DNA of 64,000 nt from a phage. Position numbers and translations under genes: made by a program. The notes beneath the pieces are model-generated. The model was not told the origin of the DNA. It saw only the letters and a list, made by a program, of their open reading frames with translations, and searched no databases. The stretch is from sequence record PZ583738.1; one strand, written 5' to 3'. The stretch's first letter is position 1, and every line of letters starts with the position of its first letter. Of this stretch, positions 48,100 through 53,806 are shown one piece after another.

Positions 48100-48654
48100 A
48101 TGAGCTTATATACTGACCTTATATCAAATGTAGACTGGTTTAGTGGTAGTGGTCTTGCCACTGAAACTAACACGGTTCTTTACAGAATTCGCCAAGACCT
48201 GGGTTATTCCAATGATTTCTTAAGAAGAACGACAAGTCGCGGCGATACTACCAAATTGCCTTTTATTTTTGCTTTAGCTGAAGACCTTTCTTTTGCAGAT
48301 GCCTTGGAAATTATTGATGTAAATCTGGGTATTCAACGAGTGGAATTCGGTGGACTACGTTATTCAGTATATGCGTTAAATGACCCAGATGATTATAGGC
48401 AACTTATTAATGCGGACGATGGTGACCATTTGGTGTGTTATTTGATGTTGGAAAATGGTGACCACTTTGGAATGGTTGACCGCCGACCAACTTATACTGA
48501 TATTAAAAATTATGATAAAGATGAGCTTCTTGATTTGGCGGCTGAGTACACATTAGAGAGTCGTAAACGGAAACGTAAGCTTAATCGTTTTATTGCTGAA
48601 TGTCGTGAATATGCTAAAGGGGTTCAAAATGCGAACGCTATATCTGCCAAGTAA
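48100..48654 (+). CDS. hypothetical protein
   Basis: Start at ATG (MSLYTDL) after RBS; C-terminal ...NRFIAECREY junction motif. Confidence 0.5.
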   Translation: MSLYTDLISNVDWFSGSGLATETNTVLYRIRQDLGYSNDFLRRTTSRGDTTKLPFIFALAEDLSFADALEIIDVNLGIQRVEFGGLRYSVYALNDPDDYRQLINADDGDHLVCYLMLENGDHFGMVDRRPTYTDIKNYDKDELLDLAAEYTLESRKRKRKLNRFIAECREYAKGVQNANAISAK

Positions 48655-48988
48655 ACCAGAAAAATTTGTGTACGCAGACAAGATTGATAAAGACCTTATG
48701 CCTCCATTTGGAGCTTTGTCCATGTGCATCGTTGGGGTTATAATGATGGTGCTTTGTGGGGATATGAATATCATTAGTGTTGGAGTCGCCTGGTCACTAA
48801 TAATTGCAGCACCTTTTATTACAGTCCTGAGCATGATATTGATAAACGTGTGGCATCAAAATCATATGAATAAAGGATATCGTGGGCGAGTTAAAGAGTG
48901 GGAACAAAAATGTGTTTCCCTGCAAGAAGAGCACAAAATTAAATGTGCCGAAGAATTTATTAAGGAGGTTCGTAATGGAACGGCCTAG
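48629..48988 (+). CDS. small membrane protein
   Basis: Start at ATG MRTLYLP after RBS aaagggg; two hydrophobic helices; ends ...EEFIKEVRNGTA. Confidence 0.5.
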   Translation: MRTLYLPSKPEKFVYADKIDKDLMPPFGALSMCIVGVIMMVLCGDMNIISVGVAWSLIIAAPFITVLSMILINVWHQNHMNKGYRGRVKEWEQKCVSLQEEHKIKCAEEFIKEVRNGTA

Positions 48989-49328
48989 TCTTGCATCACA
49001 TGTTTATCAATTGGCTGAATATGATATTGGTGCCAGTTTATTATTAGGGATTGTCACCGCCATGCTTGGCGGTTTGGTTGGTCTGGTAATGACCACGGTT
49101 ATGGCTGCAATCGAGGGAGTCATGCCTATTGATATGGGCTTCTTTATGATAATTGCTCCGGCTGTTGTGGCTTATTTTATCCCTGTTGTGTATGATATCT
49201 GTCACACAAACGCCTTGAATGCTCCTAGTCGGAAGAGATATGCTTCAGCAATGGCTGAGTATAATAAGTTCCTAGACAAAACAAAACGTAATGACCTTGA
49301 AACCTTTATTAAGGAATGTAAATCATGA
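48975..49328 (+). CDS. small membrane protein
   Basis: Start at ATG MERPSLASH after RBS AAGGAGG; hydrophobic helices; ends ...ETFIKECKS. Confidence 0.5.
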   Translation: MERPSLASHVYQLAEYDIGASLLLGIVTAMLGGLVGLVMTTVMAAIEGVMPIDMGFFMIIAPAVVAYFIPVVYDICHTNALNAPSRKRYASAMAEYNKFLDKTKRNDLETFIKECKS

Positions 49329-49615
49329 ATAAAATTGAAATTGCTATCCCCAAGTATTATGATGAAAAATCTGCAGAAAAAGCTATCTATTCTCTTCTAA
49401 ATAAGACCTCTGAAATTGAAAAACACTGCGAAGAAATCGCAGATGAATACGGTATCCAATTCGGTACCGGTGATTATGGTTCAGGCCGTACATATTATCC
49501 TGTCGGTTATGAATGCTCCAAGTGGTTTAAAGATGAAATTGAAAACAACGGCGGCGAAGTTGAAAACGGTGTCGTTACAGTTGGTGCTTGGGTCTCCTCT
49601 TCGGCAATGTGCTAA
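49325..49615 (+). CDS. small protein ending in W-V-S-S-S-x-x-C
   Basis: 96 aa; ATGA-coupled start; C-terminal GAWVSSSAMC encoded by a repeated 3-prime DNA cassette. Confidence 0.5.
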   Translation: MNKIEIAIPKYYDEKSAEKAIYSLLNKTSEIEKHCEEIADEYGIQFGTGDYGSGRTYYPVGYECSKWFKDEIENNGGEVENGVVTVGAWVSSSAMC

Positions 49616-49624
49616 GGAAACTCT

Positions 49625-49906
49625 ATGATGAATGATTACCGTAAAAATAAAGAACTGGCTAACGCAGTAAATGACATCCATAAAGCTATTCGTCGTGCCG
49701 AGGAAATTGCAAACAAATATGAGACTCATTTTAATATATACCCTGCTCGCGGTATGGGCGGTGACTATTATTCTCCTGGCGCCCTGAAAGCCGACCTTGC
49801 TCATTGGGAAGAACATGGCCATCCTGAATGGGCTATTGTTAATACTCATGACTATACAACTGACCTGGAAAAAGGCGGTTGGGTGTCCTCCTCTTCTGAA
49901 TGTTAA
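49625..49906 (+). CDS. small protein ending in W-V-S-S-S-x-x-C
   Basis: 93 aa; RBS TAAGGAA upstream; C-terminal GGWVSSSSEC. Confidence 0.5.
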   Translation: MMNDYRKNKELANAVNDIHKAIRRAEEIANKYETHFNIYPARGMGGDYYSPGALKADLAHWEEHGHPEWAIVNTHDYTTDLEKGGWVSSSSEC

Positions 49907-51596: not shown

Positions 51597-52243
51597 TGGG
51601 AAGACCATTAGAAGATTTGACTGGTAAAATTATTAATGGAATCAAATTTGTTTCGGTAGCATATAAAACCGCTGGAGTTTCTACTAAATGGAATTGTATT
51701 TGTCATTGTGGTAAAGAGTTTGTCACAGCCGCCGCTCGTATAAAATCAGGTAAAACCAAATCATGCGGCTGTCAGAAATATCATTATTCATTTATTTCTG
51801 ACAAACCTACGTATTCATCGTATGCTGCCATGATTGAAAGGTGTACAAATCCTAACCATCATCGTTGGAAGCAGTATGGTGGCGCTGGTGTACAAATATG
51901 TGATAGGTGGCTACCAAAGGGAAAAACTGGTTATTTGAATTTTGTTGAAGATATGGGTATTCGTCCAGCAGGTACAAGCATTAATCGGATAAATTCATGT
52001 AAGCTATACAGTAAAGAAACTTGCGAATGGGCTTCATCATCAATACAGTCATTTGACCAGGATACCCGAAAAGATTCACCTGGTCCAATTACAGGTGTCA
52101 AGTTTAGAAAAGACAGAGGTAAATGGATATCATATATTACTGTTAATCATAAAGAAATCCAACTTTACTATGGTGATTCTCGCGACGAAGCAATAGAAAG
52201 ACGACGCACCGCTGAATTGAAATATTATAATAGACAAAAATAA
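51593..52243 (+). CDS. zinc-ribbon plus AP2-domain DNA-binding protein (homing-endonuclease-associated type)
   Basis: 216 aa; CICHCG...SCGCQ cysteine cluster; C-terminal ITGVKFRKDRGKWISYITVNHKEIQLYYGDSRDEAIERRRTAE resembles AP2 DNA-binding domains common in phage homing endonucleases; no clear catalytic motif. Confidence 0.5.
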   Translation: MMGRPLEDLTGKIINGIKFVSVAYKTAGVSTKWNCICHCGKEFVTAAARIKSGKTKSCGCQKYHYSFISDKPTYSSYAAMIERCTNPNHHRWKQYGGAGVQICDRWLPKGKTGYLNFVEDMGIRPAGTSINRINSCKLYSKETCEWASSSIQSFDQDTRKDSPGPITGVKFRKDRGKWISYITVNHKEIQLYYGDSRDEAIERRRTAELKYYNRQK

Positions 52244-52302
52244 TTGTGTACATCCAAGTGGGACTATGACACAATGGTCCCACAATCAATGAGGAAAATA
52301 TT

Positions 52303-52989
52303 ATGAACGGTCCGAAAACTTTTAATTCTAAAGCTCGTGCAGTAGGCGGATTTGCAGGTCATATTTCTAATGATGATATTAAAAACGAGCCTATGTTCTT
52401 TAACTGTGATTTGAATTTTGCTGCACAAAATGGCGGTCCTATTACTCGTAGCTTTATTACTAATCTCCCTGATGAGTGGAAAGCCGTTGAATGTGTATTC
52501 GATTCTCGGGTTCATATGTTGATGCCTGGTTGGTATCCTGCTATCCCAGGTTATCACCATGATGATGTGCCACGCCCGGATATTCCGGTTGGTCAACACT
52601 TTATTACTGCAGGGCAACCTGATTATGATAATCCTCGTTACCATTCTGAACATATTCTTGGTCTTGTTAACGCTGATGTGTGTCCTACTTATTTTGCAAC
52701 CGGAACTGCGCAATTTAGTCAGATTCCTGAAGGCGAACTTATCTATCGCCAGTGGCATAAAGAAGTTCTGGAAAAAATTGAGTCCAATGAATTAACCAAG
52801 TGGGATGCTCCTGACCGCACGTTGCTCCAGTTTGATTGGCAGACATGGCATACAGGTTCTCGCGCAGTAAGTAATGGTTGGCGCTGGTTTGGTCGTGTGT
52901 CTCGTAATACCGACCGTGTTAAAAAGATTACAAATGAAATCCGTGTTAATGCTCAAGTATATCTGGAATTCCCTATGGAGGGATGGTAA
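52303..52989 (+). CDS. hypothetical protein
   Basis: 228 aa; His/Asp-rich patch PGWYPAIPGYHHDDVPRPD; early promoter-like cassette and leader upstream. Confidence 0.5.
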   Translation: MNGPKTFNSKARAVGGFAGHISNDDIKNEPMFFNCDLNFAAQNGGPITRSFITNLPDEWKAVECVFDSRVHMLMPGWYPAIPGYHHDDVPRPDIPVGQHFITAGQPDYDNPRYHSEHILGLVNADVCPTYFATGTAQFSQIPEGELIYRQWHKEVLEKIESNELTKWDAPDRTLLQFDWQTWHTGSRAVSNGWRWFGRVSRNTDRVKKITNEIRVNAQVYLEFPMEGW

Positions 52990-53573
52990 TGCTGTATGAA
53001 CCCGGTTGTATGGGTGTTGATGTAAACTTCATCCGCCGGGCAGAAAATGCAGGTATAATTGTATCAAGAGACGAATTTATGATTACCAAAAAATATTGGG
53101 CGAACCTTGATGATGGTGATGAAGGAATCAAGGTGGAAAATGTTGATTGGTCGCGATGCAATCGTCATGTGAAAGAGCTTTTAATTAAGGAATATAAAAT
53201 GGGATACATCATTAATGGGCATCAACCAGAACCACTCAAAGAACAGACACCCGACCCATTAATTTCTTATAGCAAGAAATATGGATTTCGTACCTGGAGT
53301 GATGAATTTGATAAATTAATTTGTTCCAGGTTTTATGCCTGGGCTGGAATCTTATTTTTACCATTCCTGTGGTTTTTCCTGACAGGTAAAAATGAAGCAC
53401 CTGTAGCTGTAATGGGCGCGTGCTTTTCTACTGCTCTTGCTGGACTTATTGCATCATTTTTATGGACTATGGTTATTGAAGTACCTTTTCGTATTTCTAA
53501 AGTTAAAAAGGTGTACGACGATATCACTAAGAAAAATACATTGAACTCTTTTATTGAGGAATGCCGTAAATGA
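52983..53573 (+). CDS. hypothetical membrane protein
   Basis: 196 aa; C-terminal TM helices; ends ...NSFIEECRK (junction cassette). Confidence 0.5.
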   Translation: MVMLYEPGCMGVDVNFIRRAENAGIIVSRDEFMITKKYWANLDDGDEGIKVENVDWSRCNRHVKELLIKEYKMGYIINGHQPEPLKEQTPDPLISYSKKYGFRTWSDEFDKLICSRFYAWAGILFLPFLWFFLTGKNEAPVAVMGACFSTALAGLIASFLWTMVIEVPFRISKVKKVYDDITKKNTLNSFIEECRK

Positions 53574-53806
53574 GTATTGCGATTTATATTAAATCTGAGT
53601 CATGTGATTCTTATCTGTATTCCTATGATACAGGCACATCAGAAGAGAAAATCAAAGAAGATTTAGAAAGTGATTTGGATATGTTCCGACCGATTTCTGA
53701 ATACAGAATTCAAACTTCTGATAGTGAAAGCCCTTCATTGGAAAATAGACTTGAATTTTTAATGAGTGATATTTTTAACCAATCATGGAAACGTGACGAT
53801 GAGTAA
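53570..53806 (+). CDS. hypothetical small acidic protein
   Basis: 78 aa; ATGA-coupled start. Confidence 0.45.
   Translation: MSIAIYIKSESCDSYLYSYDTGTSEEKIKEDLESDLDMFRPISEYRIQTSDSESPSLENRLEFLMSDIFNQSWKRDDE

Follow-up and report, generated by a model that had tools for sequence, protein, structure and literature searches.

Why should four genes of a T4-like phage end in almost the same few codons, written across the border with the gene that follows? The question is raised by a 64,000-nucleotide (nt) stretch of phage DNA (sequence record PZ583738.1; hereafter the window, meaning the whole stretch), in which four open reading frames (ORFs) between 48100 and 53573 close with a short peptide of the form F-I-x-E-[C/V]-R/K. 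A preliminary description of this DNA saw in these ends a portable junction module that could mediate cassette exchange. The analysis presented here favors a different answer, to which we assign a probability of about 80%: the junction is dual-coding, a conserved C-terminal peptide on the proteins encoded after gene e.6 being overlaid with the translation signals of the next cistron, and it is not mobile DNA.

A C-terminal peptide restricted to the genes after e.6

The phage belongs to the genus Gaprivervirus (T4-like), the window being 92–94% identical to VR26, VR20, VR7 and SP18, and its plus strand corresponds to the minus strand of T4. Gene identities were drawn from the annotation of these relatives and of T4, together with synteny. 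On this basis the four ORFs are the counterparts of T4 e.5, e.4, e.3 and e.2. Their coordinates and C-termini are exactly as first described, and all end in F-I-x-E-[C/V]-[R/K]. Lengths are given in amino acids (aa), and TM denotes a transmembrane helix:

48100–48654, plus strand: e.5 counterpart, 184 aa, soluble (no TM), phrog_8788, ending in ...LNRFIAECREYAKGVQNANAISAK
48589–48606, plus strand: e.5 motif codons, TTT ATT GCT GAA TGT CGT
48629–48988, plus strand: e.4 counterpart, 119 aa, two TM helices, phrog_2604, alternative start at 48611 (matching the start of T4 e.4), ending in ...EEFIKEVRNGTA
48956–48973, plus strand: e.4 motif codons, TTT ATT AAG GAG GTT CGT, a degenerate copy in which V replaces C
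48975–49328, plus strand: e.3 counterpart, 117 aa, two TM helices, phrog_2330, ending in ...LETFIKECKS
49305–49322, plus strand: e.3 motif codons, TTT ATT AAG GAA TGT AAA
52983–53573, plus strand: e.2 counterpart, 196 aa, soluble N-terminal domain followed by two TM helices, phrog_2203 and PF26896 (Phage_T4_Y06M), ending in ...LNSFIEECRK
53550–53567, plus strand: e.2 motif codons, TTT ATT GAG GAA TGC CGT

This recurrence exceeds chance. Among the 113 plus-strand ORFs of at least 50 codons in the whole window, four carry F[IV]x[ED][CVS][RK] no more than 22 residues from the stop, against 0.024 expected (the mean of 2000 within-ORF shuffles, with a maximum of 1), and on the coding frames of the window the pattern was not found beyond these four ORFs. 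At the DNA level the pattern TTTATTRAGGARTGY occurs in the window twice exactly and six times at up to two mismatches, with 1.66 expected. The two 24-nt junctions that had been called near-identical agree at 17 of 24 positions.

The motif is restricted to the gene cluster that follows e.6. In TH44, a complete close relative of 171 kb, the C-terminal motif in its strict or relaxed form is found solely in e.5, e.4, e.3 and e.2, and 92 kb of a Klebsiella Jiaodavirus searched in six frames hold two copies, both C-terminal and both just 3' of e.6. When 1.84 billion representative proteins were searched exhaustively with a profile, 12 matched; every full-length one ends in the motif, the exceptions being the truncated fragments P0049 and P0088. 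A word-indexed protein search with e.3 only found just close relatives, and a search for related loci gave seven, all near-identical. Distant genera were sampled through e.6, which is present in more than 1100 phage records (1111), as an anchor. The generalized motif [FY]-[IV]-x-x-C-[RK] is found in phages of Klebsiella, Serratia, Enterobacter, Aeromonas and Providencia, always just 3' of e.6, and the position of the Glu is taken in other genera by H, Y, M, G, D, K, Q or S. The tails include FIKHCREAVNG, FLKEIRK and FIKYCRGKHVS in Klebsiella Marfa; FVKMCRTK.., FIKECR, FIKGCRK and FIRGIRS in Serratia; FINYCRG.., FIRMCRKN.., FINDCRKARK and FIAECRGKK in Enterobacter; FVDYCRRTASKK in Aeromonas; and FIHSCKK.. 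in a Pseudotevenvirus; FVDYCRR, YIRHCRGE and FVDECRRRL are also among the tails of the distant genera. An e.5-family protein is present in 10 of the 11 sampled lineages, the slot in Providencia being held by a 107-aa carrier, and each lineage has one to five further small carriers, mostly with two TM helices. In Providencia, six of the roughly nine genes following e.6 carry the motif.

Constraint on the peptide and placement of the translation signals

Codons were compared over this region in 18 relatives from four genera. The motif Cys is written TGT in 16 cases and TGC in 17, and the motif Arg as CGT (19), AGA (9), AGG (5), CGA (3) or CGC (3), with Lys AAA in two more; the Leu three residues before the Phe is encoded by CTT, CTA, TTA or TTG. 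Among relatives the Arg codon switches from CGT to AGA or AGG with the residue unchanged, and because such switches of codon family preserve the amino acid, they indicate that purifying selection acts on the peptide. Selection at the motif is on amino acids. The motif is also kept within each family across Tequatrovirus, Mosigvirus, Dhakavirus and Gaprivervirus, the protein bodies being only 20–30% identical, and the Phe is the sole invariant column in the joint alignment.

Conservation of the motif is, moreover, separable from the Shine-Dalgarno (SD) sequence. The first free position of the motif is K, E, T, A, M, I or S, and only in some genes is an SD (AAGGAA or GAGGAA) formed there. In T4 e.3, T4 e.2 and RB69 e.2 the SD lies after the Cys (TGC-AGG-AAA), and these proteins have two extra residues. 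In L019, a divergent metagenomic contig, four successive genes end in ..NFVKECRGQ, ..QFIREVRNAKTR, ..KFIDDCKNWR and ..NFIKMCRNS, with the SD outside the motif in most of them, including a GGAGG past the stop codon of ..KFIDDCKNWR. The layout of the junctions in the window is as follows:

48615–48631, plus strand: SD AAAGGGG (48615–48621) and ATG of e.4, in the e.5 tail 3' of the motif; copy 1 of a direct repeat
48962–48977, plus strand: SD AAGGAGG and ATG of e.3, within the e.4 motif codons; copy 2 of the direct repeat
49311–49328, plus strand: SD AAGGAA (motif K-E codons), 8-nt spacer and ATGA, at the junction of e.3 with the next gene
49325–49615, plus strand: gene after e.3, with an ATGA overlap with e.3
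53556–53573, plus strand: SD GAGGAA (motif E-E codons), 8-nt spacer and ATGA, at the junction of e.2 with the next gene
53570–53806, plus strand: VR7ORF132c homologue after e.2, with an ATGA overlap with e.2

The preliminary description had placed the ribosome-binding site of the downstream gene inside the upstream frame and an ATGA stop/start overlap at these junctions. The first part holds at the ends of e.4, e.3 and e.2 and fails for the e.5 motif, whose GCT GAA codons form no SD; the SD of e.4 lies 9 nt further 3'. The ATGA is found at e.3 (49325–49328) and e.2 (53570–53573) only, the overlaps of e.5 with e.4 and of e.4 with e.3 being 26 and 14 nt, respectively. Co-directional overlaps of 4 to 26 nt are the layout expected under translational coupling.

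Under the dual-coding reading, two layers share the same codons. The peptide layer has the general form [L/I]-x-x-[F/Y]-[I/V]-x-x-C-[R/K], which becomes F-I-x-E-C-R/K in T-even-like lineages, and is borne by the proteins encoded directly 3' of e.6 in T4-like phages. Since the cistrons overlap by 4 to 26 nt, the SD and start codon of the next gene must be written into the last codons of the preceding one. The lineage of this phage has recruited the two free motif positions as SD (K-E as AAGGAA, E-E as GAGGAA); in other lineages the SD is supplied by codons that follow the Cys (TGY-AGG-AAA, CGA-GGN) or by sequence past the stop. The similarity of the junctions in DNA would thus be a consequence of peptide conservation, A+T-rich codon choice and SD overlay rather than of the spread of an element, and the locus would present a clear case in which an SD laid over a conserved peptide mimics a repeated DNA element.

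What the peptide might do is suggested by its predicted structural setting. In the AlphaFold2 model of e.3 (pLDDT 74), a TM hairpin leads into one unbroken helix, residues 52–116, that reaches the motif. The peptide would accordingly form the end of a long helix in the cytoplasm and present L(-3), F(0), I(+1) and C(+4) on a single helical face (i, i+3, i+4, i+7). A basic cytoplasmic tail with such a one-faced L/F/I/C pattern would be typical of a docking or zipper element, and the peptide may be a common docking or oligomerization element for one shared partner. The short repeats that coding for the peptide creates could occasionally mediate the loss or fusion of family members. A Foldseek search of BFVD with the e.3 model found uncharacterized phage membrane proteins only; the e.5 model was unusable (pLDDT 38.6). 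By joining several orphan early genes (T4 e.2, e.3, e.4 and e.5) in one putative functional group, the tail also offers an exact handle for mutagenesis at its F, C and R.

Several observations weigh against this explanation. The e.4 copy in the window has V in place of the Cys, and three of the four motif copies in this lineage contain an SD, so that conservation of the nucleotides is partly translational. Homology between the families outside the tail is statistically undemonstrable, which makes common descent and independent acquisition of the tail inseparable. Some T4-type e.3 genes are frameshifted and miss the tail, the T4 reference e.2 is split, and Dhakavirus has no e.4; individual carriers are therefore dispensable, a situation that fits several proteins using one tag better than it fits an obligate hetero-complex.

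Competing explanations

A first rival holds that the carriers form a single, very divergent paralogous family produced by tandem duplication, the motif being its slowest-evolving remnant rather than an independent module. The case for it is best at e.4 and e.3, which are similar in length, have an identical two-TM layout and can be aligned from end to end, with a BLASTP E-value of 4e-6 and an hhalign probability of 86% over 108 columns (0.4% for the reversed control), with BLASTP bridges through a metagenomic paralogue (L019_126) and RB69 e.4. These two are, judging from the alignments, probably paralogues, and the earlier statement that the four ORFs are unrelated probably does not hold for this pair; it stands insofar as there is no detectable homology between families outside the tail. 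Weak, end-anchored PHROG cross-hits lead from e.4 to the e.3 family, from e.3 to the e.2 family and from RB69 ORF133c to the e.2 family, and a TM hairpin with a basic helix is a common architecture among carriers. The e.5-slot protein has a central YS[VIL]xx[LY]ND core in common with T4 e.5 and gives weak collinear PHROG matches to the T4 e.5 family (phrog_2607); the e.5 proteins of T4, RB69 and Serratia are linked through a Marfa protein, and Enterobacter and Serratia proteins also connect the T4-type members.

Against the single-family explanation, all inter-family hhalign signals, including that between T4-type and window-type e.5, fall to the level of reversed-sequence controls once the last 14–16 residues are removed, the e.4/e.3 probability dropping to 9%, and inter-family BLASTP links are confined to the tail. 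Proteins of the e.5 family (155–326 aa) and the Marfa and Enterobacter UFV01 proteins of about 100 aa have no TM by simple hydropathy and resemble the TM carriers only in the last ~15–30 residues. More generally, carriers are either putatively soluble (102–326 aa; no TM by a simple hydropathy count) or of the two-TM type, with no BLASTP similarity between the two groups outside the tail. As far as these comparisons reach, the tail is the only robustly common element of e.5, e.2 and the TM proteins, and descent of all carriers from one such family is improbable as the explanation of the motif. A Pfam search with the four window proteins gave no match, and precomputed database Pfam hits name T4 e.2–e.5 as separate families (Y06M, Y06O and Y06P were seen). 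Nothing relevant to T4 e.2–e.6 was found in the literature searched, e.2–e.5 are without assigned function in the libraries, annotation and papers searched, and the C-terminal peptide itself appears to be undescribed in that literature.

The portable junction cassette is no more probable. In this explanation a DNA module of about 24 nt (AU-rich, with SD and ATGA) serves as a homology patch for the swapping, insertion or deletion of genes. In its favor stands the e.4 indel. Dhakavirus lacks e.4, and the difference between Gaprivervirus and Dhakavirus is exactly bounded by a 16-nt direct repeat, AARGRGGTTCRWAATG, made up of the SD and ATG of e.4 and those of e.3. In addition, the start of a 3.6 kb variable block coincides exactly with the e.3 ATGA, comparison with T4-type phages shows VR7ORF132c to be inserted precisely at the e.2 ATGA, and the tail is common to proteins without detectable homology elsewhere. 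The proposed comparison of gene neighbors across relatives thus gave a mixed picture: the e.4 indel is bounded by a repeat, and other indels start at the junction, but the unrelated genes inserted between e.3 and e.2 have no second copy of the junction at their far end. Moreover, the repeat that bounds e.4 is an SD and ATG that in e.5 lies 3' of the motif, and in a tightly packed operon viable indels must fall at gene boundaries regardless. Recombination has also joined carriers at a place other than the junction: in OP555981.1 (L026 3001–3321; P0051) an in-frame chimera of the e.4 N-terminus and the C-terminal half of e.2, with e.3 deleted, has its join in the first TM helix, where 7 nt of microhomology (TCCTGTG) lie, and this chimera is present in five contigs. 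In the events seen in the cluster (loss of e.4, fusion, split and frameshift), members of the family were lost or fused, rather than unrelated genes being swapped at a portable site.

The copies themselves likewise argue against a mobile element. Identity between junction copies is 72% within a genome and, between genomes, 73.5% for orthologous and 69% for non-orthologous copies. There is no excess of within-genome identity of the kind looked for as gene conversion or concerted evolution, and since copies within a genome are no more alike than copies from different genomes, neither gene conversion nor spread is indicated. Together with confinement to one gene cluster in TH44 and the Klebsiella Jiaodavirus, and with a codon pattern that reflects selection on amino acids, this largely refutes the reading of the junction as a portable cassette.

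The same holds for the likeness once drawn to promoter cassettes. The PeSL (promoter early stem-loop) cassettes of T4-like phages sit between genes, each joining a sigma-70-like early promoter to a stem-loop, and have been proposed to mediate indels through recombination between copies (Arbiol et al., 2010, PMC2839356; Comeau et al., 2014, PMC4122927). Common to both are short repeats at gene starts, hyperplastic regions and an SD with start codon at the 3' end, and the e.4 indel described above has the geometry of PeSL recombination. The junction differs in lying within coding sequence, in having neither promoter nor hairpin, in its amino-acid constraint and in its restriction to one gene cluster rather than dispersal in the genome. 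Over the four motif copies there is no promoter-like site save one weak match (49297–49326; 9/12) extending across the e.3 junction; promoters and terminators were no more numerous in the scan than in shuffles, with 22 promoter-like sites over 7.1 kb against 23.5 expected. With the mobile-junction reading falls the tempting parallel to PeSLs.

The least probable of the rivals developed here, with very little in its favor overall, is that the element is purely translational, the conserved nucleotides being a ribosome-binding region (U-rich enhancer, SD and spacer) and the amino acids a by-product. It draws on the AAGGAA, GAGGAA, AAGGAGG or AAAGGGG that stands 6–8 nt 5' of the following ATG at the four junctions, on the Arg, Gly and Lys codons after the Cys, which often make GAGG or AGGA, and on a junction region that is unstructured, as befits translation initiation (the four junctions fold no better than shuffles, z +1.37 to -1.18). 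Yet the spacing between motif and following ATG varies between -1 and 22 nt, the residues that are conserved (F, I/V, C and R) lie outside the SD, and the positions that do form the SD are the variable ones. Six-fold-degenerate codons change family with the amino acid retained, and other coupled junctions of the window end differently (FKKDE, PMEGW and WKRDDE). Two further candidates were rejected: a nascent-peptide stalling signal, since the distance from motif to stop varies from 0 to 25 residues, and membership of the T4 capsid targeting sequence, since the motif lies at the wrong terminus for it and the Glu of the motif is not conserved.

The e.6 lead, known systems and neighboring features

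The dual-coding reading places the tailed proteins after e.6, and the gene order here is e.6, the e.5-slot gene, e.4, e.3, the 3.6 kb variable block, e.2, the VR7ORF132c homologue, nudE, e and denV. The first of these genes lies outside the junction itself:

47463–48056, plus strand: e.6 homologue, which precedes the motif carriers in all T4-like lineages examined; candidate PspA/Vipp1-like protein

A profile of ten e.6 homologues compared with the PDB gave Vipp1/IM30 and PspA as its best matches (E 0.006–0.007), residues 1–140 corresponding to 1–142, with hhalign probabilities of 74–75%, whereas reversed and shuffled controls reached 1.3% at the highest. A single-sequence Pfam scan of e.6 gave no PspA_IM30 match. 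The relation is borderline, and this weak evidence makes e.6 a candidate PspA/Vipp1-like protein; no phage PspA homologue of this kind is mentioned in the Psp surveys checked. Members of the PspA family act together with small membrane proteins from adjacent genes, for example PspB and PspC, or LiaI as the anchor of LiaH (PMC9239133). As in the Psp and Lia modules, a PspA/Vipp1-like gene (e.6, with the reservation just given) is followed here by small inner-membrane proteins with cytoplasmic tails; unlike in those modules, the carriers have no sequence similarity to PspB, PspC or LiaI. A tentative and rather unlikely extension is that the two parts form one module, in which e.6 (PspA/Vipp1, with ESCRT-III-like membrane remodeling) would be recruited or regulated at the inner membrane by the tailed downstream array through docking of [FY]-[IV]-x-x-C-[RK]. 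The tail and the e.6 signal together suggest a membrane-maintenance module that can be tested.

Two other known systems bear comparison. Overlapping coupled gene pairs reportedly often encode the subunits of one complex. Coupled overlapping cistrons (ATGA/TGATG) resemble the present genes in their co-directional 4-nt ATGA or short overlaps and in having the SD within the preceding ORF (Huber et al., 2019, PMC6728339). Coupling accounts for the SD and the ATGA but leaves the conserved F, I/V, C and R unexplained.

The capsid targeting sequence is the other. Like the motif, it is a short conserved terminal peptide on otherwise unrelated proteins of the same locus, and both contain E-F-I-x-E. The T4 internal-protein (IP) version, M-K-T-Y-Q-E-F-I-A-E, is N-terminal, occurs on late packaged proteins and is cleaved after the E. 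The motif, in contrast, is C-terminal with a Cys-Arg core, and its Glu is unconserved beyond T-even-like lineages. Four genes of the window (42183, 42495, 54782 and 55572) start with the capsid-targeting-like M-[KL]-T-Y-[QK]-E-F-[IL]-x-E; the resemblance of such starts to the C-terminal motif is probably a coincidence. For the shuffling of the IP locus, the DNA of the targeting sequence was proposed as a recombination substrate (Repoila et al., 1994, as cited in PMC4122927).

Further observations concern the individual genes of the cluster. Directly 3' of e.6, a G+C-rich hairpin (GGGGGC-TTT-GCCCCC, 48062–48079) is followed by the e.5 start region, GGGAGAGGAGAATATTATG; the hairpin could serve to terminate or attenuate transcription between e.6 and the carrier genes, and the equivalent site in NBG1 carries a terminator annotation. 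VR7 and VR26 annotate e.4 as 88 aa, with a start within the first TM helix (L001 1562–1828; L002 2223–2489). Homology to T4 e.4 (MSKPSLYLPSKP versus MRTLYLPSKP), as well as the SD AAAGGGG, speaks for 48629 as the start. Among T4-type e.3 variants, P0047–P0050 and P0053 are 76–97 aa long, with a frameshift in an A-run after QRKK, and have no tail motif; these short forms could be real decay or homopolymer sequencing errors.

The e.2 gene of the T4 reference (NC_000866, region 67490–67960; 102 aa) looks disrupted, the remainder lying in two other frames (30 and 36 aa), and an intact 162-aa e.2 is found in fPS-90 and many further phages. The T4 reading-frame remnant ends in ..NNFITECRKLK with an ATGA overlap, the ATG of which encodes Met6 (MKTLSAG..), an internal residue of nudE as annotated; the annotation divides this region between intergenic sequence and the 5' end of nudE. 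The e.2 genes of VR5 (L010 11229–11822) and ABTNLsp5 (L012 10432–11025) are mosaic, with an N-terminal domain of the Dhakavirus/Gaprivervirus kind and a TM and tail half of T4 type (IEMPWRLRRQQ...).

Within the variable block, a 216-aa ORF (51593–52243) is named 'restriction endonuclease' in VR7 and VR26, and no gene of equivalent size is found there in the fetched loci of RB69, JS10, ABTNLsp5 and PSD9. It may be a mobile endonuclease gene. Most close relatives match just 81–88% of the 48.0–53.7 kb query, the positions of the gaps being unmapped. An SD and start region, AATGAGGAAAATATTATG, occurs in three exact copies (50435–50452, 50616–50633 and 52288–52305; 0 expected by chance), each 5' of a gene, the three genes being unrelated; of the two repeats, this one comes nearer to a 'portable' DNA junction than does the motif junction. 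Finally, 49325–50346 holds four tandem paralogues (phrog_899-like) that end in W-V-S-S-S-x-x-C or W-H-P-S-S-C with Cys as the last residue, three of the four being followed by a stop and SD junction of the form TGYTAAGGAA, and the same C-terminal signature is found in Klebsiella Marfa, Serratia LC53 and Enterobacter UFV01.

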